64,000 bases of DNA, taken from a virus. Position numbers and translations under genes: made by a program. The stretch is taken from the IMG/VR virus record IMGVR_UViG_3300045988_103705; one strand, given 5' to 3'. This document shows positions 36,297 through 62,212 of the stretch, piece after piece. Each line of letters starts with the position of its first letter. Position 1 is the stretch's first letter. The notes beneath the pieces were generated by a model. The model was not told the DNA's origin and ran no database searches. It saw only the letters and a program-made list of their open reading frames with translations.

Positions 36297-36409
36297 AAGC
36301 TCAAGGCAGAATAAATAAACTTTCTTAAACCAAAAATAAGTGTTTTATTTAATAAAAGATTTGCTGTGTCTGCCTTATATAAATATTATACAATATTTTT
36401 TATTGTTTT

Positions 36410-36616: not shown

Positions 36617-36695
36617 CTTCCTTTCTTACTTTCTATAAATATTATATCATATTTATAAAAGTTTTTCAAATGTTTTCAAGACGCTAGCTATTTAG

Positions 36696-36769: not shown

Positions 36770-36820
36770 ATAGATTTGCTGTATGCGTCTTATAGCAAGA
36801 GGGCCCTCCTATTGGGTCTG

Positions 36821-36896
36821 TCCTCTTAAATGGTACTCCGAGCTGGACTCGAACCAAGCATCAAGCGATTATAAGTCGCCCGTTCTAACCTTTGAA
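36821..36896 (-). tRNA. tRNA-Ile(UAU)
   Basis: anticodon stem GGCGA/TCGCT, loop CTTATAA; acceptor ACTCCGG/TCGGAGT, A73, CCA. Confidence 0.6.
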
Positions 36897-37383
36897 CTAC
36901 CGGAGTATAGATAAAGTGAGTATTTTATTTAACGCATATCAGCCCCACTCACGCCTTACCTGTGCAATTATTTATAGTTACTGTCGATAACTTATATAAA
37001 TATTATATAATATTTATTTTTATTTTTCAAATAATCAATAAGGAGTAGGTGTTCCATAAAGACCAGTAATATCAATATCATTACATAGATCTCTAGTCAC
37101 ACAAGTTTCAAGTTCTGCCTGAGAAATAATCTCTTCCTCCGCTAGAGGTTCATCACTCTCAATAGTAGCAAGGATAGTGAAAGAAACTGCATAAGTATAT
37201 TTACTCATAAACTCAAAACTTCCTTTCCTTAACTTTCTATATATATTATATAATAATTTTTTTTATTTTTCAAGGAAGCGTAAGTTCTAGAAAATATTTC
37301 TCTTACGCTTCCCTTTTAGTAAGGAAGTTTGTACTATTATTAAACTTTATATTAAATATCTTAATTACCCATACCCAAAATTT

Positions 37384-45995: not shown

Positions 45996-46089
45996 AGTAT
46001 AATTGTAATAAAAAAATATTAAAAAAGTTGGACAACCGCAATTAATTATGTTATAATAAAAGTAAAGATATAGTAGAGAGGTGATTTAT

Positions 46090-46228
46090 ATGGCTTAGAT
46101 AGCAGCTCGTATTTCTGAGGAAGAAAAACAAGAGTTAGAAAAGTATTGTAGAGAGCACGATATTAAATTGTCATAGCTTATTAGATGGGCTATAAAAGAA
46201 TATATTGAGAAAAATAAAGTAGACTAAA
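46090..46228 (+). CDS. ribbon-helix-helix (CopG/Arc-like) DNA-binding protein, TAG-recoded; frame continuity across the A-run at 46138-46143 needs checking
   Basis: GAGAGGTGA Shine-Dalgarno plus ATG. A one-base frame adjustment in the A-run gives MAQIAARISEEEKQELEKYCREHDIKLSQLIRWAIKEYIEKNKVD. This has the full ribbon-helix-helix pattern and uses two TAG as Gln. Confidence 0.4.
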
Positions 46229-46837: not shown

Positions 46838-47100
46838 TGCAATACTATGAAAAATTTCATGTATTTCTGAGAATACTATGATTTCATCATATTGTGAAAA
46901 AGCTATGAAATTTTCATGTATTTGTTGGAAAGCGATGAAATTGTTTTCATGGTATTCTGATAATACTATGAAATTAAATAAAAAGGATTTTCATAGCTTT
47001 CCAACAATACCATGTCATAGTATTCTGACAATACCATGAAAGTAAATAAAAATCCATTTCATGGTATTCTGACAATACAACAAATATAACATATATTAGA
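46838..47100. repeat. second iteron array (TTTCATGGTATTCTGACAATAC-type repeats; ATGAAA/TTTCAT inverted motifs)
   Basis: at least seven partly inverted copies of aatactatgaaa / tttcatggtattctga(c/t)aatac in 260 bp of AT-rich ORF-free sequence. Confidence 0.65.
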
Positions 47101-47173
47101 TAACAGAGTTAAGATAACAGTCGCGACTTTTTTTATGTATTTGTGAAAAAGCGATGAGTAGGAGGATTAAGGC

Positions 47174-47593
47174 ATGGAAGTATTTAAACCGATTAAGGTA
47201 GAAAATTATCAATTCATGAAGAATGGATTAAATTAGTATGAACCAGTATTAGTTTACTTTAAAGATGATGAAGAAGAAGGCAAGGTATATTTTGTAAAGA
47301 ATAAATTTGATGATAAGTTAGAAGAATGGATGGAAGAGAATTTAAAGGTAGAAGGAAGAAGTAGAGTTATAGTAGATAAGTATCATAATAGGATAAGTAT
47401 AGATGTTTTTACTCAAGATTTAGAGGACTCTATAACCGATTTAGAAAAACGAATTGAAAAGTTAGAAGAAGGTTTTAGAGAAATCGAATTGAAAAATCGA
47501 GATAAAAATGGAGAGATATATGATTTGGTTGGAAGGATAAGAGAGATAAATAGAACTGGATAGAGATGTAGATTATCTTTATATGAAGATTGA
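47174..47593 (+). CDS. hypothetical coiled-coil protein, TAG-recoded
   Basis: GGAGGA plus ATG at 47174; TAG at 47237 and 47561 read through to TGA at 47591. Confidence 0.45.
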
Positions 47594-47726
47594 AAGAAAT
47601 TAAAGGAAATTAAAAGAAGTTTATAAAATGATGGAGTTGGGTGCCGATCGGGTCTAGGTACGAACCATCACAACACTCGTCACAACGATCGTAAACCTAG
47701 CCTTCCGCAATTATAATATATAAAAA

Positions 47727-47760
47727 AGGAGAGAAGCTACAATACTTCTCTCCTTTAATC
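47727..47760. terminator. bidirectional hairpin terminator
   Basis: aaaaaaggagagaagctacaatacttctctcctttaatcttttt. Confidence 0.6.
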
Positions 47761-47772
47761 TTTTTCCTCTTG

Positions 47773-48228
47773 TTACTTTAGATGCTTCAAAAACTCCATA
47801 ATATTATCTTCATCAGACCGAGTATTACCCTTAATCTGAGACATACTCTTCGCGAGAGTATCAGAAATAGAATCAACAGCAATGTCAATTACTTCATCAA
47901 GACTCTCTGCATTAACAACCTTAGCGGAAGTCTTAGCAGTTACAGTCATAGCCTGCATAAACTGCTCAATATCCTTAGCTGTCCACTTAGGATTGCTCTT
48001 GCTATAAACCAACGCAGCCACACGGCCAACGTCATCCTCAGTAAGAGACAAGTCATCAACATTTTCATAGAAAGTAGACTCAATCTCATCCAGAAGATTA
48101 TCTCGCTCATGGTCTGCGGCGTTAGCCTCGGAGATTCTATTCATGGCATCAGTAAATGCCTTTGCAATCTCCTCCTGAGTAGAACCATTCTGCATTGCAT
48201 CACGAATCATAATCTCATAACTATTCAT
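47773..48228 (-). CDS. hypothetical protein
   Basis: 151 aa acidic. Confidence 0.4.
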   Translation of the reverse strand: MNSYEIMIRDAMQNGSTQEEIAKAFTDAMNRISEANAADHERDNLLDEIESTFYENVDDLSLTEDDVGRVAALVYSKSNPKWTAKDIEQFMQAMTVTAKTSAKVVNAESLDEVIDIAVDSISDTLAKSMSQIKGNTRSDEDNIMEFLKHLK

Positions 48229-48327
48229 AATAAGTTCTTTTAGTTAGAAAAGCGTTATGATGCTTCTTAAACTAAAATCCTCCTTTTCTTTATCTTATGT
48301 ATATATTATATTATATTTTTTATATAT

Positions 48328-48960
48328 TGTCGAACCGATCGGGTCTAGATAAAAAGATCGCTTTAACGGAATCCCGCGGAAAAGATTTTTACTTTTTAAA
48401 TTGTTAGCAACATCTTTGCTATTGTTTGCTGTATCTTTAATAGTTTTAATTCTGTGAATATCAAGAAATTTTGAGAAAAACGAGGCATTTTTTGCTTATT
48501 TTTAAGTAAATTTGTTAGAAAAACGCGTATTTTTGCAAGATTTTAGAGGTTTTTCGTTATATTTTGCGATAACAAGAGGTAAAATAATGCGGACCGATCG
48601 GTTTATCTAGCTAAAATCTCTATTTTTGAGCTATTTTTATCATAAAATCGTGTTAAACCGATCGGTTCCGCGAAAGAAAACTCTGGTCGTATTTGTTTTT
48701 CATAGCTATATCTTTGCTATTGCTAGTTGTATCTTAGAAAGTTTTGGTGCTATGAATACTTGACAATTTTAAGATTTTTATTATAAAAATTTGGACGAGA
48801 GAGCCAATATTGTCGAACCGATCGGGTTTAGATAAAGGAAGAAGTAAAGTAGGGCCGATCGGTGTTTGGGAGAGGGCGTTATGAATTTTGGGAAAATCGC
48901 TATGAAGTTGCGTTATGGCCAAGTTGCTATGAAAATTTGCGCTATGGTCCGATCGGGGAA
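48328..48960. repeat. cluster of CCGATCGG palindromes in an ORF-free region
   Basis: accgatcgggtctag (48330), ccgatcggt (48597), accgatcggt (48662), accgatcgggt (48817), gccgatcggt (48853), tccgatcggg (48950); one more at 47642. Confidence 0.6.
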
Positions 48961-49039
48961 ACTCGGGCCGAGTCGCCCGCGACCGGCCCGTCGAGTTTAG
49001 GAAATATGAAATAAAAGAGAGGCCGAAGCCTCTCTTTTC

Positions 49040-49291
49040 TTAATCCTCGTTTTCTAAATTGATTTCTCCTATACAGTTACACCGTATCGGAGATTCAAGA
49101 ACAAATTCATCTCCATATCCAACGATAGTTATTTCTCCATACTTTTTACAATACTCGTCTATCTTTTCGATTAGACTATTCCAATCTTTCTCTTGCGCTT
49201 TTTGTTTTCTAAGTGCCACTTCTTTATAGGCGGTAGCACTCAACCATTGCAACTCCTCGTCATTCAGTTTGTTGAAATCAATATCAACCAT
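49040..49291 (-). CDS. hypothetical protein
   Basis: 83 aa. Confidence 0.35.
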   Translation of the reverse strand: MVDIDFNKLNDEELQWLSATAYKEVALRKQKAQEKDWNSLIEKIDEYCKKYGEITIVGYGDEFVLESPIRCNCIGEINLENED

Positions 49292-49308
49292 CTAAAAATC
49301 TCCTTTCT

Positions 49309-49797
49309 TTAATGAAAAATCTCAGCCGGAATTTCACTAAAAACTTGCTTAAATTGCTCCATAGTCAGTTCTCTTGCCGCTCTCTCGACCCTTTCTTTTG
49401 CCCAGTCGCAAACCATTTCACAAGAAATAAATTTAATTTCATACCCGGTAATGGCGTAGATTTTAGGCGACCACTCAAATCTTTTTGTATCAGCCATATT
49501 TCCAGTTAAAATCATATATTCGCCGGTGGCTTGATTTTCTTCTGACTGTTCAACCCAACATTGAACTATATTTTCAACATAGTTTTTCCCCGTTTTAACC
49601 GCTTCTTTTTCGGTTCGAGCATTGATTAAAAAGGTAGAAAGCATAATATCATCACGAAATGATACCGTAAATTTATAAGGCTTCTTAGAGAAGATACCCT
49701 TGCGACCTTCACACCAAAAGGTAACTTGAAAATTAACACGAAATTGTTTCAGACTTTCCATTTCTTTTATCTCCTTTCCATGGTTAAATGATACCAC
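49309..49797 (-). CDS. hypothetical protein
   Basis: 162 aa. Confidence 0.4.
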   Translation of the reverse strand: MVSFNHGKEIKEMESLKQFRVNFQVTFWCEGRKGIFSKKPYKFTVSFRDDIMLSTFLINARTEKEAVKTGKNYVENIVQCWVEQSEENQATGEYMILTGNMADTKRFEWSPKIYAITGYEIKFISCEMVCDWAKERVERAARELTMEQFKQVFSEIPAEIFH

Positions 49798-49825
49798 ATT
49801 TTTGGGAGAAAGTCAAGCTGTCAAG

Positions 49826-49856
49826 TTGCACAAATTTTCAATTCAAAATTGTTGAA
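49826..49856. promoter_or_regulatory. palindromic operator, copy 1 (TTGCACAA-N15-TTGTTGAA)
   Basis: followed by GC hairpin ccgcggcgcacgcaagcggcccgcc at 49868-49905. Confidence 0.55.
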
Positions 49857-49951
49857 AATGACAATAGAAGAAAAAATCGGACCGCGGCGCACGCAAGCGG
49901 CCCGCCCAAAATTTTGCGTAAAAAAATCTCCCCATAAGGGGAGATTTTTCT

Positions 49952-50302
49952 TTAATTGAGAATTATCGGGTATGCCTTGCGAATAACCACCGTAACCATG
50001 GCCGGGGGAGTGTCGCACAAGAAACGGTCATTTCTGATAAAACGACCAATTCCCATACTCTGCCACAAAGTTCGGTTTACATCCTCGTATCGTAGGGTAT
50101 TATACTTGGAAAGTTTGATATGCCAATCATAGATAAAGGAACCATCTTCCGGCATGGTGTAATCTGGCGCCCGCTTATAATTTCTCGTATGTTCTGCGGC
50201 TCTGCGCTCAAGGTCATTTGTCGTACCAATCTTGAGAATATAGCGCCCCTTTTTGTCGATATAATGTCCGACATATAGGAACTCTTTTCCCCTTGTCTGC
50301 AA
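49952..50302 (-). CDS. GIY-YIG-like (T5orf172/Bro-N-type) domain protein
   Basis: FLYVGHYIDKKGRYILKIGTTNDLERRAAEH. Confidence 0.5.
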   Translation of the reverse strand: MQTRGKEFLYVGHYIDKKGRYILKIGTTNDLERRAAEHTRNYKRAPDYTMPEDGSFIYDWHIKLSKYNTLRYEDVNRTLWQSMGIGRFIRNDRFLCDTPPAMVTVVIRKAYPIILN

Positions 50303-50358
50303 ACTAACTATAACTTGCCTCTTTTCTGGTAGGGCCGGGGTAGGCCGACCCTACCCCG

Positions 50359-50676
50359 TTATTTCTTCGGCTTACGCTTTTGCACAAGCGTCAACTCGAA
50401 ACTATCCCCACCAATAGAAAACGCAATCTGTCTTTCCTTATTAGTAATAGACAAATCAGCGATAGAGAATTGACTGTTTTTTTCCAAAAACTCTGCCAAT
50501 TCCGCGATTATACCGCCTTTCGTGGCGTTTGGCTTGCGTTGCCGTGTAGTGAACTTATATGCGGTTGGCTGTTTGCGCGTTCCAGCATGGGCAAACTTTT
50601 GAGCGATTTTCGCCTTTTCTGGCGGTAAATCGTATTCAGTCTTTTTATCAGCCTCTACCGCTTTATCATAGGCCAA
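50359..50676 (-). CDS. hypothetical basic protein
   Basis: 105 aa. Confidence 0.35.
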   Translation of the reverse strand: MAYDKAVEADKKTEYDLPPEKAKIAQKFAHAGTRKQPTAYKFTTRQRKPNATKGGIIAELAEFLEKNSQFSIADLSITNKERQIAFSIGGDSFELTLVQKRKPKK

Positions 50677-50814
50677 TAAATCTGCCTCCTCTTCCGGCGT
50701 TAATTGCAGGGCTTTATACCTTGCAATCCGTTCAGCGTCACTAATACGACTGGATATAATATCACCCCCATATTATAAGTTAGGGCGGGGATTTTCACCC
50801 CGCCCTATACGGGG

Positions 50815-51225
50815 TTACGCCATCTTAAAAAGGGACTTGCCCTTCTTTTCCGTGCAGACCACTCGACCATCGAGTTTCAACTGCCGCACAAGGGCGGCGA
50901 CCTTCTGGTTAGAATAGGCCGTCAGATCAGGAATAGCCTTAAAAATTTCCGTGCAGGTCACGCCATCGGTATCGGCATCCAGATCAGCCAGATACTCCAT
51001 AATCTGCTCCTTAAAATTCTCGTTCTCCTGCTGGGTGGGAGTCAGCTTCTTGTCACCGCTAGAGCTATTCTTCTTACGCAGAAGCTCCAGCTCATGGTCA
51101 ATGACAGTAATAGCCACCTCGATGGTAGTGCCATACTTTACCTCGCCGTCAGTCAAGAGGGCCTTAATGTCCTCAAAACGCTGGGCCTTAGTAATGCGGA
51201 TTTTCTTCTCGTCCATAATATACAT
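50815..51225 (-). CDS. hypothetical protein (possible winged-helix)
   Basis: 136 aa. Confidence 0.35.
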   Translation of the reverse strand: MYIMDEKKIRITKAQRFEDIKALLTDGEVKYGTTIEVAITVIDHELELLRKKNSSSGDKKLTPTQQENENFKEQIMEYLADLDADTDGVTCTEIFKAIPDLTAYSNQKVAALVRQLKLDGRVVCTEKKGKSLFKMA

Positions 51226-51264
51226 CCTTTCTGGTTTTTAGGACTGTCCTTGTCCTTTGATTAT

Positions 51265-51293
51265 ATTGTACCACACTATTTGGTACTTGTCAA
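51265..51293 (-). promoter_or_regulatory. sigma-70-type promoter TTGACA-N17-TACAAT
   Basis: minus-strand CCTCTTGACAagtaccaaatagtgtggTACAAT, about 40 nt upstream of the ATG at 51225. Confidence 0.6.
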
Positions 51294-51436
51294 GAGGTTT
51301 TTCAAACTTTTTTCAAGAACTTTTGCCCTTTACTTGTTTGCCCTCTCAACCTCCCTTATAGTGTAACACACTTTGGAAAGTTTGTCAAGCCCTTTTTGTT
51401 TAATTTTCAAGGTACATTGCCTTGTTTTCTGTACTT

Positions 51437-51465
51437 ATTATAGCACATCTTCAAAGGCTTGTCAA
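51437..51465 (-). promoter_or_regulatory. sigma-70 consensus promoter TTGACA-N17-TATAAT (tandem, no adjacent ORF)
   Basis: minus-strand CCTCTTGACAagcctttgaagatgtgcTATAAT. Confidence 0.55.
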
Positions 51466-51573
51466 GAGGTTTTTGAAAGATTTTTGAGAAATTCGCTGTC
51501 ACTGTCTGCCGTTCGTCTCTCTCACTTTCTGAATGTATTTTACCACAAGCAAAAGCAGATTGCAAGCGTCAAA

Positions 51574-51651
51574 TTGCACAAAAAATCGGAATTTTGGGAG
51601 AGAGTTTTTGTGCAAAATTCTGCACAAAAACGGGACGAAATTTTTGTGCAA
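51574..51651. promoter_or_regulatory. two adjacent palindromic operators (four TTGCACAA/TTGTGCAA half-sites)
   Basis: ttgcacaa (51574), ttgtgcaa (51608), ctgcacaa (51620), ttgtgcaa (51644); GC hairpin 51664-51698. Confidence 0.55.
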
Positions 51652-51955
51652 CATTACCATTGAAAAATTCGGCCCGCGTCAGCCATCCGCGGGCCGTCGA
51701 CCTTTTAGATATAAAAAAAAATAAGAGGGCTGTAAAGCCCTCTTAAATATCAATCATATAACTATAAACCATATCCCAAAGCGGCATATCATCCAGAAGG
51801 ATATTTACAGTCAAAAGTCCGGTTTCTGTCGGCCCATCAACAAACCATCCCAGCCGCTGCGTAAGGTGAATAACCTCATAGACATAATCGGGGTCAAGAT
51901 GGTTAGTGGTAAACTGTCTTGAAAACATTTCTTTTCCTTTCTATCGGGCGGGGCT

Positions 51956-52747
51956 TTAAGCCCCTACCCGAATTGTCGGATTATTTTTCAAACTTGCGGA
52001 AAGTTGACGCTGAAAATCTGTCATAGGCGGAAACTCTCTTTTATTCTCATACAGGGCCTTTCTCATGGGCTTATGCTGACGCATACAATACCACATGATT
52101 TCCGCCTCAATCAGAACATCCTCAAGCCCCGTATGACTTTCTTCAAAATCGGTATTGCCAGAGATAAACCGCCACACGATTTCCGCAGTCTTGCGGGGGA
52201 CACCATTAGCCTGGACATATCCGTTTTCCTGACAGAATTTCTTATAAGTGGGCATATTGCAGATAACATCCTGTGTCATCTTCATAATATCCCAAATCTC
52301 CACGCTGTCAAATGGGAACCAATAACGCCACTTGGAGTAGGTCACATAACGCTGTGTAACTCTCAAGGCATTATCGTCAAATCTGGCATTATAAGCCGCA
52401 ACTTCCTTAATGCCGTATCGCTCAATGGTATTGAGCATAGCTTGGCGGATTTCATAAGTGGTAGCCATTTTACGAGTGCCGGCCCGCAGTTCCTCAATAT
52501 AGCGTGGAATTTTCCAATTATAATAAGCAGTCCGCATGAGATCCCGCTCATCGTTGAAAATGTCCCTATTTACAAAACTGGCAGTTTCATAAATATTGCC
52601 CTTGGTATCCACTACCGCCCATCCGCAATCATAGACAAGAACGCAACTCATATCCATGCGGGCTTTGCCGTTTTCGTCAGTTTCAGTCAGTGTGTTAGCA
52701 GTTTCAGTATCAACCACCAAAACATAGTGTCTACGCTTATCAATCAT
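51956..52747 (-). CDS. DEDDh 3'-5' exonuclease (DnaQ-like)
   Basis: VVDTETAN exo I; H-x4-D (HTGLEDV). Confidence 0.55.
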   Translation of the reverse strand: MIDKRRHYVLVVDTETANTLTETDENGKARMDMSCVLVYDCGWAVVDTKGNIYETASFVNRDIFNDERDLMRTAYYNWKIPRYIEELRAGTRKMATTYEIRQAMLNTIERYGIKEVAAYNARFDDNALRVTQRYVTYSKWRYWFPFDSVEIWDIMKMTQDVICNMPTYKKFCQENGYVQANGVPRKTAEIVWRFISGNTDFEESHTGLEDVLIEAEIMWYCMRQHKPMRKALYENKREFPPMTDFQRQLSASLKNNPTIRVGA

Positions 52748-52779
52748 AATCTTTGACTTCCTTTCCTCTTGTTGAGTTT

Positions 52780-52808
52780 ATTATAGCACATATCATGCTT
52801 GATGTCAA
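52780..52808 (-). promoter_or_regulatory. sigma-70 consensus promoter TTGACA-N17-TATAAT
   Basis: minus-strand CCTCTTGACAtcaagcatgatatgtgcTATAAT upstream of the exonuclease gene. Confidence 0.6.
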
Positions 52809-53012
52809 GAGGAAAAGGAAATTTTTATTGCGATTTACTGCAAGCTACTGGGCATTAGAACGGCCTATTCTAACGGCGTTCACTCGACTTACGACACAAT
52901 ATAAATTTACTTCCTTTACTTTCTAAGAGTTCGCGACCTCTTGATTTCTTGGCCTTCCCCTCTTGACAAATATATAATACCATACTTTCGGGATAATTAC
53001 AAGATGGCAAAT

Positions 53013-53043
53013 TGCACAAAATTTGCAAGCCAAAATTGTGCAA
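53013..53043. promoter_or_regulatory. palindromic operator TTGCACAA-N15-TTGTGCAA (perfect 8-bp inverted repeat)
   Basis: ttgcacaaaatttgcaagccaaaattgtgcaa; GC hairpin 53062-53095; terminator hairpin 53115-53137. Confidence 0.6.
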
Positions 53044-53363
53044 CATCGACAAAAACAAAAACTCGGCTCGCCGCGTGCGCCAGCGAGCCGCCCAAACGAT
53101 ATTAAAGAGTAAAAATAAGAGGGCCGAAGCCCTCTTAATATCCAAGATATTCTTTATTGATAATCTCGTCAAGCCAATAGCTCAAATCTTCAAGCGAAAT
53201 ATCGTCATCAATTTCATTGTCGGCCATAACCTGATCAATTTGACCAATGAGAATGGACGCATTTTTCAATACTTGTCGCTCTTCCTCGCTGAGGATAAGC
53301 CTATTAACCTTTCTAATCTTCATTTACAAAACTTCCTTTCTTATTTTAAGATTGACTGGTGGA

Positions 53364-53828
53364 TTACTCTACCAGTCGCCATAAGGCCGTAGGTAAATCT
53401 TCATGTGGCTCGATTGTTTCCCCTAAATGCCAGCCATCCCGCACACTTTTATTATCATCAATCAAAATGAAATTGCTAATTCCCGGCTCAAAGTGTTTCC
53501 GCACACAATTTGCTTTTGTTGTGCCATATTCCACAAGGTGGACTTTATGTGCGGGGAAGTTGTATTTTGCAAGCCAAGTGCGCTTTGCGTCACGAACAGC
53601 AGTTTTATATGAGTTAGAACTGTCTTTTGCAAGCCAACTGATAACCCGAATTTCCCAGCCCTGCTCAATGAGTTTATTAAGAACGGTATTCAATTCTTCC
53701 ATATCGCAAAGAGGTTTGGCGACTGTATATGGATAGGGATTTTCATTCATTAAATCTTTTAACCAATCATCCACGCCGTACAGGTCAGCGATTGTTCCAT
53801 CCATATCAAAGCAGAGCATCTTTTTCAT
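53364..53828 (-). CDS. HAD-family hydrolase (5'(3')-deoxyribonucleotidase-like)
   Basis: CFDMDGTI motif I; 154 aa. Confidence 0.6.
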   Translation of the reverse strand: MKKMLCFDMDGTIADLYGVDDWLKDLMNENPYPYTVAKPLCDMEELNTVLNKLIEQGWEIRVISWLAKDSSNSYKTAVRDAKRTWLAKYNFPAHKVHLVEYGTTKANCVRKHFEPGISNFILIDDNKSVRDGWHLGETIEPHEDLPTALWRLVE

Positions 53829-53897
53829 TTTGATTTACTTCCTTTCTTTAGGTTGATTAAAGTATATCAGATTTCGGGATAGAAAACAAGAGGCAAA

Positions 53898-53929
53898 CTG
53901 CACAAAATTTCGGCTGGAAAATTGTGCAA
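53898..53929. promoter_or_regulatory. palindromic operator CTGCACAA-N16-TTGTGCAA
   Basis: ctgcacaaaatttcggctggaaaattgtgcaa; GC hairpin 53950-53983. Confidence 0.55.
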
Positions 53930-54027
53930 CTTCTACAAAAGAGAAAATTCGGCGCGCCACGCACGTTAGCGCGCCGCCGAGAAGCCTATTCAAAAAATGG
54001 GATAAAAAAGAGGGCCGAAGCCCTCTT

Positions 54028-54489
54028 TTAACTTTCACATATATTTGCAAGAAATCTTGCAGAAAGTTTAACCATGTCATGGACAGATTCTTCGTTATTG
54101 CTATTTTTATAGCAAATAAAACCAACCTGGTCGCCATTCACAAGAATTGGTGTAATAAACATACTTTCCCATTTTGTCGCCGAACTGCGAATATCAATCC
54201 AGTCATCGGGAACTCTTGTAATTCCAAAGGAACGCGGCCCGCATAAAATTCCATCATTGTCAAAAATAGCCGCGGCGATTCCGTTAGATGAAAGGGCATT
54301 TTGCATTTGTTTAGCGTAAGAGGAAAATTCTCCCATTATAGAATATTTCTTAAAAACTACGCCGCCATCTTCTTCAAGAAAAATCTCTAATGGGTCGCCT
54401 TCTCTAATATGAAGGTTTCTACGGATTTCCTTTGGAATTACTATCCGGCCCAAATCATCAATACGGCGCACAATTCCAGTAGCTTTCAT
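54028..54489 (-). CDS. SpoVT/AbrB-family transcriptional regulator (swapped-hairpin N-domain plus C-terminal sensor-like domain)
   Basis: GIVRRIDDLGRIVIPKEIRRNL. Confidence 0.6.
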   Translation of the reverse strand: MKATGIVRRIDDLGRIVIPKEIRRNLHIREGDPLEIFLEEDGGVVFKKYSIMGEFSSYAKQMQNALSSNGIAAAIFDNDGILCGPRSFGITRVPDDWIDIRSSATKWESMFITPILVNGDQVGFICYKNSNNEESVHDMVKLSARFLANICES

Positions 54490-54541
54490 TTTTATCTGCG
54501 GGAGTGCAAGATTTATAGTCTTGCACTCCCTTCCTCCCTTC

Positions 54542-54934
54542 TTAATCCAGTTCTTTCAACATCCGTTCGAGGTCAGCTTTAGTACTACCCAACTCAAGCG
54601 TAAGAATAATTTCCGTTACGGTATTTTTCTCCCAGTCGCTAACTTCCCGCATGGCCTTTTTCTTCTCGTTCTCCATAGCGGGGTAAATACAATCCTGGCA
54701 AGCCTCTACCAGCCGGTCATTATATCTGCGGAAACTCATCCCCTTGTTTTTAACCTCCGAAAGAAGTTCGTCGTTAAGGGCTTTTACCGCCTGCTTAACT
54801 TTCTCCTGCATGATTTTACACTCTGTCTCATAAGCGGAAAAGGTTTCATGGACAGCCTGCCTCTTGATTTCAGCCTTTACTCCAACTTCCTTTTCAATAT
54901 ACTCCCGAACAACCTTACTAACACGCATTTCCAA
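54542..54934 (-). CDS. hypothetical protein
   Basis: 130 aa; sigma-70-type promoter TTGACA-N17-TACAAT at 54991-55019. Confidence 0.4.
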   Translation of the reverse strand: MEMRVSKVVREYIEKEVGVKAEIKRQAVHETFSAYETECKIMQEKVKQAVKALNDELLSEVKNKGMSFRRYNDRLVEACQDCIYPAMENEKKKAMREVSDWEKNTVTEIILTLELGSTKADLERMLKELD

Positions 54935-55172
54935 AACTTCCTTTCTTAATTTTAATTTTTATTTATCGGGGTCGCCCCTTCCATGGTCTTATTGTACCAT
55001 AATTGGGGCGATTTGTCAACCCCTTACATCAAAGTTTTTGCAAGATACGCAAATATTAAAATCTCCGCCGCAAACATGATTTCAAGTCCTATGCAATCTC
55101 TTTCAATAGCGGCTACAAATTGCCATACCAGACATAGAACAAAAGCAATCAGAATTATCATGGTAAAAGTTG

Positions 55173-55508
55173 TCATATACTCACCCCCGCAAAGGAAACT
55201 TCCGCAAAGTTGATATTGAAACGCTCCCATTCACTTTCCATACCTAACATCATATCATGGAAAAGGTCATCACGATTTTCATATCCATCTTCTTCCAGAA
55301 TAGCCTCCCATTCTCCATCGTCATATTGATTTTCCAGATAATCCAAAGCAGACTTGCGGGCGGCGATGGTATTAGACGCTACGCAGATAGGTTTATCGTC
55401 GTATCCGTCCGTGACCAAAATCATTTTCTTTTCTTCCATGATTTTTTCTTTCCTTTCTTTCGAGGTGTTTCTGTCTCCCTCTTTCTGATAATAATATACC
55501 ACAGGCAA
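55173..55508 (-). CDS. hypothetical acidic protein
   Basis: 111 aa. Confidence 0.35.
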   Translation of the reverse strand: MPVVYYYQKEGDRNTSKERKEKIMEEKKMILVTDGYDDKPICVASNTIAARKSALDYLENQYDDGEWEAILEEDGYENRDDLFHDMMLGMESEWERFNINFAEVSFAGVSI

Positions 55509-55550
55509 AGCAGAAAGTCAAGCGATTTTAGGAAAAAATCTTTCGTCAGA

Positions 55551-55582
55551 TTGCACAACAATTCGAGCCTAAAATTGTGCAA
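55551..55582. promoter_or_regulatory. palindromic operator TTGCACAA-N16-TTGTGCAA
   Basis: ttgcacaacaattcgagcctaaaattgtgcaa; GC hairpin 55596-55632. Confidence 0.55.
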
Positions 55583-56354
55583 ATTGCCTCTTGATAAAAA
55601 ATTCCGGCCGCGCCTGTGGTGCACGGCCGGGCGAACGAATAAAAAAAAAGAACCTCCTGAATTTCAGGAGGTCATTAATTTCTGCATACCAACAACTCCC
55701 TTTCTTTTGAGAAGTCAATCGGCATTTTCAACAATCTTTAATCCGTTTGCTTGGATAATTTTCATAGCTTCTTCAAGCGAGGAATCAACCGATCCGCAGT
55801 CAATACAGATATATTTTCTACCATCTTTTACCATAGTAGTAAAATAGTATTCCTAACCGGAAGTAAGTCCCATTTGTTCACGCAAGCGAATCGGAATCAT
55901 AATTCTACCACTTGAATCTAATTTGCGAGAGAAAGTAGTTTCTTGCATTTTGATAAATAAATTCTAGTGACCTAGGCTCGTGCGAAAAACGACTCCATCA
56001 CGGGAATCGCCGATTTAGAACAATCGGAAGGAACATTTACCACTCGCAAGGCATTTTCTGGCAGAACTGAGACATAGGACAATTTTTACAAGAATCCTAG
56101 TTCAAACAGAACTCCAAAATAACCGCGAGTGCTTTCAGCACTTCTAAGGTCATTAGAAAAACTCCTTTCTTTATTTTTCTATAATTATTATAATATATTT
56201 TTTTGAAAAAATCAATAGGGCCGGCATTACGCCAGCCCTAATCTCTGCAACCAAACCAGATGGTATTTACCAATGTGAAGTAGAACTGTGCCATATCCCT
56301 TATCCGTCCAGACAGTGGAGCCGATAGGATATGTGTGCGGTAAACGCTCAATAC

Positions 56355-56570
56355 TCACTTTAGTTCCACCTCCTCGAAAGCTCCAATTTTTAGCAGATAA
56401 TTATATAAGGCTCTATCTTGCTTGTCGCCGGTATTAAAATCAAGTGTACGAACACAGCCGGTAACATTGGAATTGAGAGGATGACCCAAACACCAGCCAG
56501 CCATATTACAAATTGTGTTTCCAAACTCCACAGACTTTTCTGCACTTTCAAATTTAATAACAGCAATCAT
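56355..56570 (-). CDS. hypothetical protein
   Basis: 71 aa. Confidence 0.3.
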   Translation of the reverse strand: MIAVIKFESAEKSVEFGNTICNMAGWCLGHPLNSNVTGCVRTLDFNTGDKQDRALYNYLLKIGAFEEVELK

Positions 56571-56632
56571 ATTTATTCCTCCTTTTTATCGTGGGGAGTA
56601 GAGGTTTGTGGCCTCCACTCCCGCAAGTTTTC

Positions 56633-56872
56633 TTAACCATCTACATAAATGATTAAATTGTTATCTCTTGCCTCAATGCCGGTTACCTGAAGTCCCATCA
56701 CCCATTCCTTAGATACCTCGATTACGTCTCCTCCCAGAGTTATTCTACCATCAGGTAATTCATGGTAATGAGCTTGGGTATTCTTATTGATAATTTCGAA
56801 TCCCTCCCCGTCAAAGAACATAGTATCTTCTGCAAGCGGAGAAAGTAACCAAGCAACCATATCTAAAGTCAT
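56633..56872 (-). CDS. hypothetical protein
   Basis: 79 aa; promoter TTGACA-N17-TATTAT about 56905-56933 on the minus strand. Confidence 0.35.
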   Translation of the reverse strand: MTLDMVAWLLSPLAEDTMFFDGEGFEIINKNTQAHYHELPDGRITLGGDVIEVSKEWVMGLQVTGIEARDNNLIIYVDG

Positions 56873-56982
56873 TTTTTTTACTTCCTTTCAAATTCTTTTT
56901 GTGGCCTGTCCCTTTGGACAAGTATATAATAACACATGGCAAAAGGAATGTCAAGTAATTTCGGGAGAAAAACTTTCGTCGA

Positions 56983-57014
56983 ATTGCACAGACTTTCGGT
57001 CATATAATTGTTGA
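56983..57014. promoter_or_regulatory. palindromic operator TTGCACAG-N16-TTGTTGAA
   Basis: GC hairpin gggccgcggcgcacgctggcggcccgg at 57037-57070. Confidence 0.5.
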
Positions 57015-57139
57015 AATTGCCGAATAAATAAAAATTCGGGCCGCGGCGCACGCTGGCGGCCCGGCGAAAAGTCAATATGGAAAAGTGCATAAAAATGACT
57101 GGCAATCTTTGTGCAGATTGCCAGTCAAGTATTATTCCT

Positions 57140-57373
57140 TTACAGCTCCATGGTTTCCATGAGATAGCCCGTACCCATCGGCACCTCCCGCAGATTGCTG
57201 GGACTTATACGCAACTTATATTTCCTATTGATTTTATTCGCCGCACTTGTCTTATCTCTTGCTTGGACAATTACTGGTATATGGAGTTTATTCAGAGTGG
57301 GCTTATTAAGACTGAAATATCCCATCTCTCTACGCTTGCGACCCATGGCGTCGATATAAGTTCCTCTATACAT
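57140..57373 (-). CDS. hypothetical basic protein
   Basis: 77 aa. Confidence 0.3.
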   Translation of the reverse strand: MYRGTYIDAMGRKRREMGYFSLNKPTLNKLHIPVIVQARDKTSAANKINRKYKLRISPSNLREVPMGTGYLMETMEL

Positions 57374-57528
57374 TTTTTTCTCCTATTATTTAGTCATGAG
57401 AACAAACATATTATATTCGCTGTGCTGTGGGTTTGGCTCACAGTTATCCGCCACTATATCAGCCCAACTAAGGACTGTCCAGAGTAGGAGAGCGGCACAA
57501 AGGCCGCCTCCTATCCGCTTAATAATTC

Positions 57529-57825
57529 TCATACTTTTGCCTCCTGTTCTTTAACCCATTCAATACCGATTGTGTCTTTCTCCATAGCCACTTTATATTC
57601 TTCTCTGCTTGCGGGTCTAGTATGCAGATTGCTATTGATAAACTTGCGGTTGATATATGCCCAATGTGGCATATAGGCTACTCTGATAGCATTAAAAGCA
57701 TTTAAGTCCAAAATAATGCCATCTTCCACCTCTGCGGCTTCGACATTCATCTTATAGCGCAAGAGCTTAATAAAATCTCTTTTCCTAAACATAGGCCCAA
57801 CGAACCACTTAATATAATTGTTCAT
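57529..57825 (-). CDS. hypothetical protein
   Basis: 98 aa. Confidence 0.35.
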   Translation of the reverse strand: MNNYIKWFVGPMFRKRDFIKLLRYKMNVEAAEVEDGIILDLNAFNAIRVAYMPHWAYINRKFINSNLHTRPASREEYKVAMEKDTIGIEWVKEQEAKV

Positions 57826-58093
57826 AGTCTTTTATCCTTTCTCCCCGTATAGCCGTTAGGTCAGCTTCTTTTTAATCTACGATTTCTCCACTGGATAAAT
57901 CTACAATCCAATGATTGGGATTGACTATCTCGTGACTGGCTTTCCATCTTGCCATTGAAAGGGTGGATGGTTCATAATAGCGCATTTTCTCATTGGCTAA
58001 AACCTGTAATTGATACATATAGTATACCCCTTTCTTTTAATCATTATAAACCCCGCCTTGCCTTGTGTTTTGCAAGGCGGGGTTTATAAACTA

Positions 58094-58528
58094 TTATCCT
58101 CTAATCTCTTCTTCTTGGGTCTTTGTCGCCCAATCAAAAGAGGTACGAATATCGGAAGGTCTGCGGAATTGCTCTGCTTCGGCCTCTGTTCCACCTAATG
58201 CCATAGCATAGGCTTTCCAGTCAACCGTTCCTTTTGCGGTAGTTTCTTTATATACTACCGCTTTCGCCTTACCCTGCATTTGTACCGTGCCATATAGATA
58301 ACTTGTTTTGTCCGTAGCCTTAAAAGCCTTTCCTAATCTGGAAAATAACTCTTTAGCCTTGGCCTTAGCCGCTTTTTCCGCCGCATCCGCCGCAGACTTA
58401 GCCATCTTAGCGGCCATATACTCCATGATAATGGCTCGATCTTCATTGGTAAAATCAATCTTTTTCATACTCTTTTGACTCCCTTTCTTTTTGTGGTGTT
58501 GGCTTTCGCTCTGTCTGTATTGTATCAA
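58094..58528 (-). CDS. hypothetical protein
   Basis: 144 aa Ala/Lys-rich. Confidence 0.35.
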   Translation of the reverse strand: MIQYRQSESQHHKKKGSQKSMKKIDFTNEDRAIIMEYMAAKMAKSAADAAEKAAKAKAKELFSRLGKAFKATDKTSYLYGTVQMQGKAKAVVYKETTAKGTVDWKAYAMALGGTEAEAEQFRRPSDIRTSFDWATKTQEEEIRG

Positions 58529-59061
58529 ACCTTTAGCAGTTTGTCAATACCTTTTTGAAATTTTTTAATTTTCAAAGTGCCGTGCTTTTGTCTCTGTCCT
58601 ACTGGACAAGTCCAGTTTACTACCAAAACGCCCACTTGTCAATAGTTTTTTTGAAATTTCTTTCTCTCTCTTTTGCACAAAATAAATAGCGTCTTGTTGT
58701 GCAGTTTGCACAAATCCTTTACGCGCGTATTCCTTTAGGGGCGTGCTTTCTTGCTTTCGTACTTTAGCGAGTGAAAGAGGCTGTCTACACTTCAATACTT
58801 TACCATGTGAAAGAGGGGCGTGTATTTTGGGAAAAACTGGAAATTTTTTGGTGAAATCGTTCTGCCACGCCATTTCAAAATCTAAATCGACTTTTCAATC
58901 TCAATAACGAAAAAGAGAGAAGAACTTACTTCTTCTCTCCGCATTTACACTTCTTCTTTAAATTATATATAATATGATCTTCCACTTTGTAAATTGGATA
59001 TAATTCTCCACAGACTGCGCATATATTATAATAATGCTTGCCGTCAAACCATACTAATACT

Positions 59062-59334
59062 TTATCCATCGTCGGTTGCCTCAAAACTAAAAATCAAATT
59101 ATATCCATCCTCAGTTTCTATCGTTTCATATCCTTTTAAGATATATCCATTCTCTAGTTTAATATTAATCGCATCAGATCTCCACATTGTAGGAATATAC
59201 TCTAGCCTTGGATAACGATTGTTCTCCTCCACGCAAGCAGTTAACAACAGTACGATTAATACTATGTTAATTATAAAGCTGATACTTCTTCCCAATTTTG
59301 TCAATCTCTTCCGCCTCCATTGGCCTAAATCCAA
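59062..59334 (-). CDS. small membrane/lipoprotein-like protein
   Basis: N-terminal hydrophobic segment followed by Cys. Confidence 0.35.
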   Translation of the reverse strand: MDLGQWRRKRLTKLGRSISFIINIVLIVLLLTACVEENNRYPRLEYIPTMWRSDAINIKLENGYILKGYETIETEDGYNLIFSFEATDDG

Positions 59335-59704
59335 TACACGTCAAAGTCCCTTCCGGGCCTTCGCGCTCTAACTCTGTCCTACAGGAATCGTAAATAAGCC
59401 AGTAGTCTTTATCCTCTTCCCATCCCAATTCTTTAGCCATTGCAACAGCTTTTAGCAAATCATTCTTATTCTTCGCTCTACAAACTACTTTGGTCTCCGC
59501 TTCCGCTATCCAGTTATGGAATAAGTCTCTATCGAGACTTATTCCTATATGATACATAAGACCGTCTCTTTCTTCAACGATTTCTTTGCCTCCCCAATAT
59601 AACTTCTCCAAAAGGAAAGCAATAGAAGCATGAGAAACTTGCGCGGCAAGTTTCCCTGGAGACATATTTAAATCTCGTCTTGCGATAATTAATTGCTTGA
59701 ACAT
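59267..59704 (-). CDS. peptidyl-tRNA hydrolase, PTH2 family
   Basis: QLIIARRDLNMSPGKLAAQVSHAS resembles the Pth2 VRTDL.MG.GKIAAQCSHA signature. Confidence 0.6.
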   Translation of the reverse strand: MFKQLIIARRDLNMSPGKLAAQVSHASIAFLLEKLYWGGKEIVEERDGLMYHIGISLDRDLFHNWIAEAETKVVCRAKNKNDLLKAVAMAKELGWEEDKDYWLIYDSCRTELEREGPEGTLTCIGFRPMEAEEIDKIGKKYQLYN

Positions 59705-60456
59705 TTTTCCAAAACCTCCAAGAAAGCTCTAAAATTGCGGGAATTGCGGCCTGGAATTGCAAAATAGATATTTGGAATATTATAATTGCGGGCTGCGTTT
59801 ACGAGCAAGGTAGCGACCGTTGATGGATCTTGCATAAAAACACCACAACCCCAGGCTCCCGCGATTAAATTTTCCACTCCCTTAGCCTCGGCAATTCGAT
59901 ACATAAAATTAATTCTCTCTTCCATTATCCTATTGTTTAGAGAAAGAGGAACTTGCTGATAAGTATGTGCTGTTCTATAATTAGGAGAAGCACAAGTAAT
60001 TACATCAGCTAATTTTCTACTATTGTCTTTTTCAAAGACTACATCAGGAGTATAGATAGCTCTATCAAGATATAGGGCTCGATTCAGTCTCTGTCTATTC
60101 CATGCGTAATAAGTATCATCAAAAGCAAGAAGAATAGGATAAAGGTTGCTTTCATGACACAATGCCTCTTCTTGTGCAGAGCTACCTCCAAGGAAATAAC
60201 CACCTGGATGTTTATAGCTTGCATAATTTAAGATCGCAGTCTTGCTCCGATCGGTTAAACCGAATAGACAGGATACGCTATCTTGGTCTTTAAGATAAAA
60301 GGTATTATGGTAGGTTTCTTGCGGTTTTGGCGGAAAAGGAAGATTGGGGCCAAAAATTTCAGAGTTTATAATTGCGCGATCTGTATCTTCCTTGAGTCTC
60401 ACTTTAATGTCTGCGTAATGCGATTGCGCGTGTTGTTTGAGCTCTTCTCGTTTCAT
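59689..60456 (-). CDS. microbial PARG-like macrodomain protein (ADP-ribose glycohydrolase family)
   Basis: GGYFLGGSSAQEE (GGG-x6-8-QEE catalytic signature) and AGAWGCGVF. Confidence 0.55.
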   Translation of the reverse strand: MKREELKQHAQSHYADIKVRLKEDTDRAIINSEIFGPNLPFPPKPQETYHNTFYLKDQDSVSCLFGLTDRSKTAILNYASYKHPGGYFLGGSSAQEEALCHESNLYPILLAFDDTYYAWNRQRLNRALYLDRAIYTPDVVFEKDNSRKLADVITCASPNYRTAHTYQQVPLSLNNRIMEERINFMYRIAEAKGVENLIAGAWGCGVFMQDPSTVATLLVNAARNYNIPNIYFAIPGRNSRNFRAFLEVLEKCSSN

Positions 60457-60681
60457 TTGCAGTTTCCTTTCTTCTGTGCGGTTGGGCAGAAGTGGATAAT
60501 TTAATTATCCCAATCTTCAAATAAAGTGTGTAAACTATTTGTTTCTGCCGCTAGCTTCTTTAAATATTCTCTTAATATTTTATTTTCTTTAACTTTAATT
60601 GCATAATCGCAAGTATTGTCACAGTCTGATGTGTACTACCGACCGAATCTATTATAACAATAATCAATGCAAGGACACATT

Positions 60682-61035
60682 TTACTCATATTTACACCTA
60701 TTCATTCTACAGTCTATTGTACATTGCCCTGATGCTCCCTCACAAGGAATAGCATCAGGATAGTGTTCGAAATAAGACGAGGTTAATAGAACTTCATATC
60801 CAAGTTCCCGCAGTATTCTTTCTGCGACATATCTATCTCTTAATTTAATCCATTCTTCTCTATTTACTTTTGTTTCTTCATATATTTTTCGAGATTCTTC
60901 CATATCTATTGTTATGATACCATCGGTGTTAGTTTTAAATACTGAAGGACTTTGTGTATGATAAAATTTTCGAAAGGGATTGTTAATATGAAGAACTTCT
61001 TCAGCATATTTGTCAAAATCTCCCGAAAATTTCAT
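60682..61035 (-). CDS. hypothetical protein
   Basis: probable start at MKFSGDFDKY; the longer track ORF overlaps FolD. Confidence 0.3.
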   Translation of the reverse strand: MKFSGDFDKYAEEVLHINNPFRKFYHTQSPSVFKTNTDGIITIDMEESRKIYEETKVNREEWIKLRDRYVAERILRELGYEVLLTSSYFEHYPDAIPCEGASGQCTIDCRMNRCKYE

Positions 61036-61058
61036 TATCTTTGCGCCTGTTTCGCTAA

Positions 61059-61820
61059 CTATAAACAATTTTTCATCAACCCCAATCTTGTTAATAGACC
61101 TACTCCTCCGGGGACAGGAGTTGACCATACATTATTTCTTTTTGCAATTTCATCAATTTCTACAAAGTCTCCAAGAATAATTCCTGCTTCATTTCTGCGA
61201 ATACCAACATCTATAACAATAGCGTTAGGACAGGCTTCTCTTGTTAAGCTAAATTTTCCTACCGCAGAGACAATTAAATCTGCTTGCCTTGTTAAATAGA
61301 GTTTTGTATTTATATCTGTTTTGCTATGACATACTGATACGGTCATATTTCTATCCAGTAGAGCTTTAGCCATTGGCTTTCCTACAATATCGCTTCTTCC
61401 CAAAATAACAGCAGATTTACCTTCGTAGTTAAAACCACATTCATCCAAATAGTCTATAATTCCTCTTACTGTTGCTGGAGTAATATTGCTCATAGGATTT
61501 AAACCATCCGCATCTTTAGAGATAGGTATTTGACTATAATTGAAATCAATTCCATTTGCTACTGGCATTTGAACTATTACCGCATCCCAGTCTTTCGCAT
61601 GGCCTAAGAGTAATCTTAACTCTACTGAACTATTCGCTCTAAACACTTCTGCTTCCCAACCAAGAGCATTAAAGTCTTTTATTTTATTACGAATATAAAT
61701 TTGATTTGCGGGATCCTAGGCTGTTGCGTCGATAATCATGAGTGATGGAACATTACCACTAATCTCCCGCAATTTGTTTACCTATTGTTGAAAATATTCT
61801 TTTATATTAATCTATTGCAT
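61059..61820 (-). CDS. folD: bifunctional methylene-THF dehydrogenase/cyclohydrolase FolD, TAG-recoded
   Basis: C-terminal half VILGRSDIVGKPMA...VSVCHSKT...LIVSAVGK...IVIDVGI...TPVPGGVGLLT; the N-terminal half continues upstream through at least two in-frame TAG (DATA(Q)DPANQIYIRNKIK); start uncertain. Confidence 0.55.
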
Positions 61821-62212
61821 CTGGATTAAGCCTCCAAGGGTCACTAGTATCGTAATCAATCATTTCATAGAAAGATATTTCATTTTCATTAACTTCTAAT
61901 ACCTAGTGAGGAATACACTATACTTCATAGTCAAAATCTTTATTAATATGGTAAGAAGTATATATATGAATAGCAATAGGTCTAGGATCATTAACTCCCT
62001 AAATATCCCATAAACTTATTGCTTTATTTTGGAAGATTTCCTAAGCATACTATGGAGATATAGCAATACTGATTATTAAGATATTAAAATAATACTATGC
62101 TTTTTTCGGTAAATCTAAATATGGTTCGTCAAAGAACATTGGCAAACAAATCTCCTATCTTATTTTTTATAATTATATTATAACATTTTTAAATAAATTA
62201 ATCAAATAAGAT

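Follow-up and report, generated by a model that had tools for sequence, protein, structure and literature searches.

A repeated terminator-dyad-promoter cassette in the putative early region of a TAG-recoded Clostridia phage

T4-type phages carry elements named PeSLs (promoter-early stem-loops), in which strong sigma-70-like promoters are joined to terminator stem-loops, and recombination between the copies shuffles modules (PMC2839356, PMC4122927). A repeated intergenic cassette resembling them is described here from a 64,000-nucleotide stretch of viral DNA (IMG/VR record IMGVR_UViG_3300045988_103705; the whole stretch is called the window below), where it lies on the minus strand between 48.9 and 58.9 kb and unites a terminator hairpin, a 32-bp dyad and a host-type promoter. 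We hold with moderate confidence that this is the early region of the phage, laid out as a PeSL-like array of terminator-dyad-promoter cassettes which would serve both transcription punctuation and gene shuffling.

The likeness to PeSLs extends to three traits. In each system the repeated unit is a short intergenic cassette that couples a terminator stem-loop with a host-type early promoter, the copies cluster in a plastic region rich in small uncharacterised genes (here seven copies in 10 kb), and indels or replacements between close relatives run through the copies, with crossovers in or beside the stem-loop. The present array is nevertheless unrelated to PeSLs in sequence and lineage, belonging to a TAG-recoded phage of Clostridia, and is an analogue rather than a homologue. 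Its stem is a covarying one of mixed G and C, whereas PeSLs have polyG/polyC stems, and its two tandem terminators, its 32-bp dyad and the motif TCCCRAAA between terminator and promoter are absent from PeSLs.

The host-takeover module of Bacillus phage SPO1 and the early region of T7 likewise gather many small early genes under several strong promoters of host type, with terminators, and the tandem strong promoters A1–A3 of T7 have a parallel here in three tandem promoters before a gene for a winged-helix protein. We know of no repeated cassette or upstream dyad described in SPO1 or T7. The small phi29 protein p4 recognises an inverted repeat that lies 5' of the -35 box; through contact with RNA polymerase it activates weak and represses strong promoters. 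By analogy, an upstream site such as the dyad, at which binding is putative, could act in either direction, although there is no relationship to p4 in sequence or fold. Cluster A mycobacteriophage stoperators and Aca-controlled anti-CRISPR promoters are systems in which many copies of a short site are served by one small repressor. Stoperators lie within transcribed DNA and are orientation-dependent, and Aca sites overlap the core promoter; here, in contrast, the dyad lies upstream of the promoter and no co-conserved repressor has been established.

If the proposed organisation is correct, it provides a testable transcription map of the early region for a little-studied clade of TAG-recoded gut phages, and it extends cassette shuffling by promoter/terminator repeats from T4-type phages, with their Gram-negative hosts, to phages of Clostridia. 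It would also supply compact, insulated and apparently strong promoter/terminator parts for work in gut Clostridia, a group with few genetic tools, and it exposes a widely conserved promoter-upstream dyad.

The phage and its cassette array

Reading TAG as a sense codon, as this large phage does, raises the open reading frame (ORF) coverage of the window; between 62 and 64 kb there is no ORF of at least 100 amino acids (aa) in the standard code, and a frame of 372 codons appears under code 15. Of the 31 tRNA genes in the window, one (20097–20171) encodes a suppressor with the anticodon CTA. The sole match of the window among deposited phages is phAss-1 (OQ749652), a distant relative placed in the "Caudoviricetes code 15 clade" and predicted to infect Clostridia. 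The clade has been treated in a single paper, that on phAss-1, which nowhere uses the words promoter, repeat, terminator, operator or early.

Every gene from 62145 down to 49040 is on the minus strand, and most of the early-region genes have no Pfam or PHROG match. A preliminary description of this DNA had proposed a GC-richer module at 49000–61900, possibly acquired horizontally and carrying PARG, Pth2 and FolD among its cargo. The compositional claim holds for 48.9–58.9 kb, where GC is 0.41 and GC at third codon positions (GC3) is 0.43, against a GC3 of 0.30 in the remaining window. It does not hold for 58.9–62.15 kb, which is AT-rich (GC3 0.28) and free of cassettes, and it is here, outside the array, that FolD, PARG and Pth2, all confirmed by Pfam, are located; FolD carries four in-frame TAG codons. 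In the complete 136-kb genome of phAss-1 the syntenic early region is likewise the GC-richest part (0.49–0.53 vs 0.35–0.46). The test for a horizontally acquired island failed, as the region and its GC excess were found in all relatives, including phAss-1, and cassettes in every relative examined (26 related loci). Recent import was therefore rejected and, by this comparison of sequences, the GC-rich composition is a clade-wide trait of the early genes of the lineage. The high GC and GC3 and the near-absence of TAG codons would plausibly fit translation by the host machinery before the phage tRNAs and suppressor become available.

Seven intergenic regions, IG1–IG7, align as one repeat family with a cassette of about 110 nt. 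The upstream gene's own terminator is followed 15–30 nt on by a GC hairpin with its T run; some 20 nt past the hairpin comes the 32-bp dyad TTGCACAA-N16-TTGTGCAA; TCCCRAAA stands 18–19 nt past the dyad, and a sigma-A-type promoter with a TG-extended -10 box completes the unit. All cassettes are intergenic when TAG is read as sense (code 15), none falling inside coding sequence, and orthologous copies differ by indels of 1–2 nt. The parts are as follows, in the direction of transcription, with promoters and terminators as predicted.

58673–58713 (-): dyad without hairpin (58673–58704, one mismatch) plus an extra TTGTGCAA; the dyad is 30 nt 5' of the -35 box of the promoter at 58614–58642
58614–58642 and 58519–58547 (-): two strong promoters by consensus, opening the GC-rich block
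57096–57127 (-): IG1 terminator of the upstream gene, 13-bp stem then T run
57028–57063 (-): IG1 GC hairpin (57037–57063) then AATTTTT, -20 kcal/mol
56984–57015 (-): IG1 dyad, TTCAACAA-N16-CTGTGCAA, three mismatches, 29 nt 5' of -35
56926–56954 (-): IG1 promoter, TTGACA-17-TATTAT with TG extension; TCCCGAAA at 56959–56966
55651–55673 (-): IG2 terminator of the upstream gene
55595–55630 (-): IG2 GC hairpin (55604–55630) then T run, -22.3 kcal/mol
55551–55582 (-): IG2 dyad, perfect, 29 nt 5' of -35; crossover of a relative in its first arm
55493–55521 (-): IG2 promoter, TTGACT-17-TATATT with TG extension; TCCTAAAA at 55526–55533
54991–55019 (-): strong promoter by consensus without dyad, TTGACA-17-TACAAT, inside the IG2–IG3 unit
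54006–54029 (-): IG3 terminator of the upstream gene, AAGAGGGCTTCGGCCCTCTT then T run (repeat family D8)
53941–53976 (-): IG3 GC hairpin (53950–53976) then T run
53898–53929 (-): IG3 dyad, one mismatch, 8 nt 5' of -35
53861–53889 (-): IG3 promoter, TTGTTT-17-TATACT; TCCCGAAA at 53872–53879 within the spacer
53116–53137 (-): IG4 terminator of the upstream gene
53055–53090 (-): IG4 GC hairpin (53064–53090) then T run
53012–53043 (-): IG4 dyad, perfect, 9 nt 5' of -35
52974–53002 (-): IG4 promoter, TTGTAA-17-TATTAT with TG extension; TCCCGAAA at 52986–52993 in the spacer
52780–52808 (-): promoter by consensus without dyad, TTGACA-17-TATAAT, before the exonuclease-like gene 51956–52747
51722–51745 (-): IG5 terminator of the upstream gene
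51661–51696 (-): IG5 GC hairpin (51670–51696) then T run, -21.1 kcal/mol
51574–51651 (-): IG5 tandem dyads, the first at 51620–51651 (N16), the second at 51574–51615 with a longer spacer, containing TCCCAAAA, its proximal arm 8 nt from -35
51537–51565 (-): IG5 promoter, TTGCAA-17-TAAAAT with TG extension
51437–51465, 51360–51388 and 51265–51293 (-): three tandem strong promoters before the winged-helix gene
49922–49949 (-): IG6 terminator of the upstream gene
49869–49904 (-): IG6 GC hairpin (49878–49904) then T run; crossover of relatives in its 5' arm
49826–49857 (-): IG6 dyad, three mismatches, 9 nt 5' of -35
49788–49816 (-): IG6 promoter, TTGACT-17-TATCAT with TG extension; TCCCAAAA at 49800–49807 in the spacer
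49013–49038 (-): IG7 terminator of the last early gene
48955–48990 (-): IG7 terminal GC hairpin (48964–48990), without dyad, end of the array

The existence of a separate terminator beside each hairpin, noted earlier, was found at all seven GC hairpins, upstream in each case. The pairing of each operator with a hairpin was borne out in six cassettes, where the dyad follows the hairpin about 20 nt later, and not for the hairpin at 48964–48990, which has no dyad, nor for the dyad at 58673–58704, which has no hairpin. With up to three mismatches, the dyad pattern gave 8 matches on the minus strand of the early region vs 0.32 expected. One of these (57085–57116) is really a gene terminator, and the dyad at 51574–51615 was missed by the pattern because of its longer spacer; after both corrections the true count is 8. 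The repetition claimed for the operator ("at least seven copies") is thus real, with only two of the dyads perfect.

Strict promoters were defined by at least 11 of 12 consensus matches, a 17-nt spacer and the TG extension. The minus strand of 48901–58900 has six (58547, 56954, 55019, 52808, 51465 and 51293) and the plus strand none, while the mean of 300 dinucleotide shuffles is 0.003. Seven more occur elsewhere in the window, so the type is denser in the early region and not unique to it. The four TTGACA-N17-TATAAT/TACAAT promoters reported previously were all recovered, their -10 boxes ending exactly at 51265, 51437, 52780 and 54991. By consensus match the early-region promoters are of the sigma-A type. 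Besides those of the cassettes there is a second class, even stronger, which lacks the dyad (58547, 55019, 52808 and the three in tandem at 51465–51265). The IG1 promoter is predicted to drive genes 56633–56872 and 56355–56570 and those downstream, and the IG3 promoter the HAD-like gene 53364–53828.

That the promoters, dyads and hairpins of the early region are far beyond chance is confirmed; the regulatory grammar of promoter, dyad, GC hairpin and separate terminator is real, non-coding and conserved in relatives.

Two minor observations concern leaders and openers. The leaders of the IG4 and IG1 promoters (52809–52973 and 56873–56925, minus strand) have a common purine-rich start, TTGTC.A.AGGG.A.GGCCA.AAA, and that of IG4 extends some 190 nt, with no obvious ORF, as far as the next promoter. 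The non-coding opener of the GC-rich block (58770–58840, minus strand) contains two copies of CTCTTTCAC..G.TAAAGTA, and a similar CACTTCACC.C.CTAAAGCGTTAAATTG occurs twice in phAss-1 (L001, ~7440–7480 and 13960–14000).

Cassettes in related phages

A protein search of IMG/VR with the exonuclease-like gene gave 26 related loci (given L numbers here), whose identity ranges from 100% to 32%. The six copies with a dyad were the basis of a covariance model of hairpin plus dyad, which served only as a search tool; the pair counts below come from a separate structure. The model recovered 77 full-length copies with E <1e-8 in the window and 18 related loci, several per locus and always on the gene strand. 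The motif is thus not confined to this virus, its cassettes recurring in relatives that include phAss-1.

The seven GC hairpins of the window (repeat family D2) are 27 nt each, are followed by a T run, have folding energies of -17 to -23 kcal/mol and share the stem form CGGnnCGC...GCGnnCCG. Among 69 distinct copies, 8 of the 10 stem pairs carry substitutions in both partners, and pairing is kept in 94% of cells; pair 4, for example, is CG in 31, GC in 23, UA in 10 and AU in 4. The covariation score is 0.344, vs 0.107 in shuffles (reached in none of 500) and 0.02–0.08 with the partner slid. These compensatory changes indicate that the hairpin has been selected for pairing. With its G+C-rich paired stem, a U tract within 0–2 nt, its sense-strand orientation and its position downstream of a gene, it has the features of an intrinsic terminator, and on these grounds the GC hairpin, earlier regarded as the operator's partner, is classed as a second intrinsic terminator in tandem with that of the gene, which gives two tandem terminators at each boundary.

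The dyad, examined in the same 69 copies, behaves otherwise. Its arms are conserved as sequence, the proximal arm TTTGTGCAAT being kept far better than the distal one. Its distance from the -35 box is quantised: roughly two thirds of the copies have 8–9 nt, roughly one quarter 29 nt and six copies 52–54 nt, these six having a second dyad arm 8 nt from -35. The dyad spans about -44 to -75 or further, with its centre near -59 or -80. It thus ends 8–9 or 29 nt 5' of the -35 box and does not overlap the core promoter or the start, as a repressor operator does, so that the word "operator" in the preliminary description suits it poorly. The step of 20–21 nt between distance classes equals two helical turns, which hints at contact along a single helical face. 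Since it follows two terminators and precedes the promoter, the dyad is a putative protein site on duplex DNA rather than an RNA hairpin. A nested operator within the N16 spacer was considered for this clade and rejected, the best 8-mer match being 6.3 vs 6.0 in shuffled spacers.

Comparison with close relatives reveals what the preliminary description had missed, namely that the cassettes are recombination points. Loci L003–L006, with ~95–98% DNA identity to the window, lack 55552–53932, a block of four genes including the SpoVT-like one. At the L006 junction stands a chimeric cassette, the left part from IG2 and the right from IG3, with the crossover in the common TTGCACAATTTT; L003 has the same BLAST breakpoints. 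Loci L007 and L008 lack 49873–48990 (two genes), and the L007 junction is likewise a chimeric cassette, in which IG6 sequence, on the left, gives way to IG7 sequence within their shared hairpin arm CGGGCCG; for L008 the chimera is deduced from BLAST breakpoints the same as those of L007. L003/L006 and L007/L008 thus represent two independent chimeras. In the gene maps of eleven loci the cassettes bracket variable blocks of 1–4 genes, and the HAD-like gene occupies different slots among the relatives. By this comparison the cassettes provide portable homology for recombination through which blocks of 1–4 genes are swapped between related phages. In the closest relative (L002:10990–11120), ~130 extra bases occur at the start of gene 49309–49761, and a 17-nt stretch of the window (49759–49775) aligns on both sides of them.

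In the organisation we favour, the minus strand of 48.9–58.9 kb would be the early region of a TAG-recoded Clostridia phage, divided into short insulated transcription units. The tandem terminators would block read-through, so that each unit would rely on its own promoter. The dyad would be bound by a protein upstream of RNA polymerase, either the winged-helix protein 50815–51216 or a host factor, which would modulate the cassette promoters with either sign. Recombination between cassette copies, as the comparison of relatives shows, deletes, inserts or moves blocks of 1–4 genes.

Several points weigh against this reading. The promoter and terminator calls are consensus matches, and the promoters of the module are already so near consensus that they may need no factor. 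TCCCRAAA is not enriched window-wide (15 found, 16.5 expected), being notable only for its fixed position in the cassette. The two main distance classes of the dyad may reflect only one or two ancestral events, and for either recombination event deletion and insertion are not distinguishable.

Candidate factors acting at the dyad

The factor that recognises the dyad may be host-encoded, since the dyad occurs also in other mobile elements and upstream of a Coprococcus gene, or it may come from a family widespread in the mobile elements of Clostridia. One form of this idea holds that phages, other mobile elements and a few chromosomal genes share a site for a DNA-binding protein of the Clostridia host, or else an extended promoter element that is read with host RNA polymerase; we regard it as possible rather than likely. 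It draws on the constancy of the dyad in databases. Totals from the first scan of IMG/VR with the dyad pattern are lower bounds. Among exact-arm matches there, the spacer is 16 nt in 101 of 130 and 14, 15, 17 or 18 nt in 3, 13, 10 and 3, respectively. A strong promoter lies within 70 nt of 52 of the 79 non-redundant IMG/VR sites; the gap from dyad to -35 among those 52 is 8–9 nt in 26, 18–19 nt in 9 and 29 nt in 2, and a second series of gaps, at 24, 33–34 and 43–46 nt, was also seen among IMG/VR sites. The Genome Taxonomy Database (GTDB), with one genome per species, was scanned for the dyad followed by N8-9 and TTGAC (21 fixed bases); 55 loci were found vs <1 expected, nearly all in Clostridia. 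Nineteen of them are phage contigs of the lineage, as are some of the others, for example L151 with a full cassette. In 36 of the 55 loci none of five lineage families (winged-helix, AbrB-like, g50676-like, exonuclease-like and HAD-like) was found within 8 kb. When the ORFs of dyad-rich loci were clustered, only the lineage's own early proteins were shared, though most of these loci are partial and such absence is weak evidence.

The chromosomal example is from Coprococcus catus (L200:3383–3427), where the dyad, 8 nt and TTGACA lie upstream of a gene for a Big_4 surface protein. In C. intestinihominis (L153:6379–6423) the site is conserved, with the arms kept and the spacer diverged. The Big_4-domain protein of Coprococcus is secreted, and the site stands amid housekeeping genes, its neighbours encoding an amidase, a radical SAM protein, a kinase and an ECF transporter, with no phage genes nearby.

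The case for a host factor is weakened by several facts. Only a handful of the sites are clearly chromosomal, and a global regulator should have many more; many of the seemingly unrelated loci belong to the same broad phage lineage (L151, L030); and no known regulator motif matched. Furthermore, a small protein whose similarity to ribbon-helix-helix families is below threshold is encoded in another 36 loci, which belong to different phages and mobile elements, and it might itself be the binder; its gene lies ~30–70 nt from the dyad in ~24 of 37 hits and is divergent in 5 of 6 loci inspected. A literature search for the dyad 8-mers returned only primers and unrelated matches. Some dyads are followed by TGACGAA, but Spo0A boxes were rejected, as TGNCGAA shows no enrichment (29 found vs 25.7 expected). 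A broader proposal, put forward only tentatively, is that the dyad, placed 8–9 bp or whole helical turns further 5' of the -35 box, is the element for one factor across gut Clostridia, be it a host protein or a ribbon-helix-helix-type protein of mobile elements. If true, one factor would be used in common by large TAG-recoded phages, by other phages and mobile elements and by a few surface-protein genes of chromosomes, and the phage array would be a copy-and-paste use of a general promoter module of Clostridia.

Outside the lineage the dyad usually occurs once per locus (e.g. L194:587–880, L193:5753–6072, L063:910–1225 and L029:5455–5763). In several of these loci the N16 spacer holds an element-specific motif that is repeated between -35 and -10, such as ACTCACGCGAGTAT in L194.

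The preliminary description had taken the dyad as the operator of one phage repressor, either the SpoVT/AbrB-like protein or protein 50815–51216, shutting off a possibly horizontally acquired counter-defence regulon, a model that now appears unlikely. The phage-encoded candidates are three.

54028–54489 (-): SpoVT/AbrB-like gene, in the four-gene cassette 54028–55439 that is absent from near-identical relatives
55715–55948 (-): small AbrB/MazE-like gene, 77 aa, with one in-frame TAG
50815–51216 (-): gene for a 133-aa protein with a C-terminal winged-helix domain

In favour of a single repressor, the phage does encode two proteins of the AbrB type, and the winged-helix protein is encoded behind four tandem promoters. 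The dyad 8-mers are also confined to the early region: 11 of the 13 in the window lie in the intergenic cassettes there, with one more inside a gene of the region, and 9 of the 11 in phAss-1 are in the syntenic early region, with one at the other end of the linear record (136 kb). The SpoVT/AbrB-like protein fails as binder on co-conservation: its gene is absent from L003–L006, which keep the dyad sites, and was not detected in five more distant loci that also keep them (L014, L017, L018, L019 and L025). Every close relative carries the small AbrB-like gene, yet the complete genome of phAss-1 has no member of the AbrB family.

Protein 50815–51216 fares better. It has ~190 unannotated homologues, and its structural model (pLDDT 87) has a C-terminal winged helix like the Fur/PerR, ArsR, MarR and Z-alpha domains, the matches being weak (Foldseek E 2e-3 to 3e-2, rmsd 1.7–2.7 over 67–69 residues). 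The family occurs throughout the lineage, wherever the full cassette lineage can be examined (including L027, L044, L105 and phAss-1, the last with 3–4 copies); in phAss-1 it was found by iterated profile search, and a profile-sequence comparison with one candidate gave no support. This co-conservation with the sites within the lineage makes the protein the best phage-encoded candidate for the putative binding of the dyad. The family was not seen in many dyad-bearing loci outside the lineage, which are partial, and the same dyad at the same distance from -35 is present in elements without homologues and before the Coprococcus chromosomal gene. Together with the position of the site upstream of -35 and off the core promoter, the clade-wide GC-richness of the early region and the location of PARG, Pth2 and FolD outside the array, this argues against a single-repressor regulon.

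Finally, it is very improbable that the dyad acts as an RNA or single-stranded DNA hairpin (8-bp stem, 16-nt loop), for instance as a processing or antitermination signal: the arms are complementary and 84–98% of cells can pair, but the 69 copies show no genuine compensatory change (apparent double changes being a one-column alignment shift), degenerate distal arms such as TTCAACAA and TTACACAA have no compensating change in the partner arm, Rfam gave nothing near any gathering score in 47000–63000, and a dyad past two terminators and before the promoter is expected to be rarely transcribed.

Neighbouring genes and minor repeats

Just past the last cassette, in an AT-rich stretch with reversed GC skew, the palindrome CCGATCGG forms a cluster. 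It has 9 copies in the window vs 0.29 expected, 7 of them within 1.3 kb (47644–48956) and the others at 60247 and 8889; two copies have a common longer context, ATCTAGACCCGATCGGTTCGACAATAT. Of 27 related loci, 24 keep a cluster of 3–7 copies in the corresponding position, and it could be a replication origin or a second operator array.

The 31 tRNA genes extend over 19040–36906 on the minus strand, in GC-richer patches among small genes, and near-consensus promoters are found there as well (20637, 27387, 36669 and 40631). In 46029–46227 (plus strand) a further near-consensus promoter, starting at 46029, directly precedes a gene for a 45-aa ribbon-helix-helix protein (DUF6290, 31.6 bits, cut-off 27), which contains two in-frame TAG codons.

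Divergent from the early region is the gene at 62266–63312 (plus strand), whose 348-aa product has no Pfam match, 11 in-frame TAG codons and a cysteine-rich C-terminal tail. This product may act as a regulator dependent on the suppressor tRNA. This gene and the next (63356–64000, plus strand) are kept in at least 8–10 dyad-rich loci, among them L030, L044 and L129.

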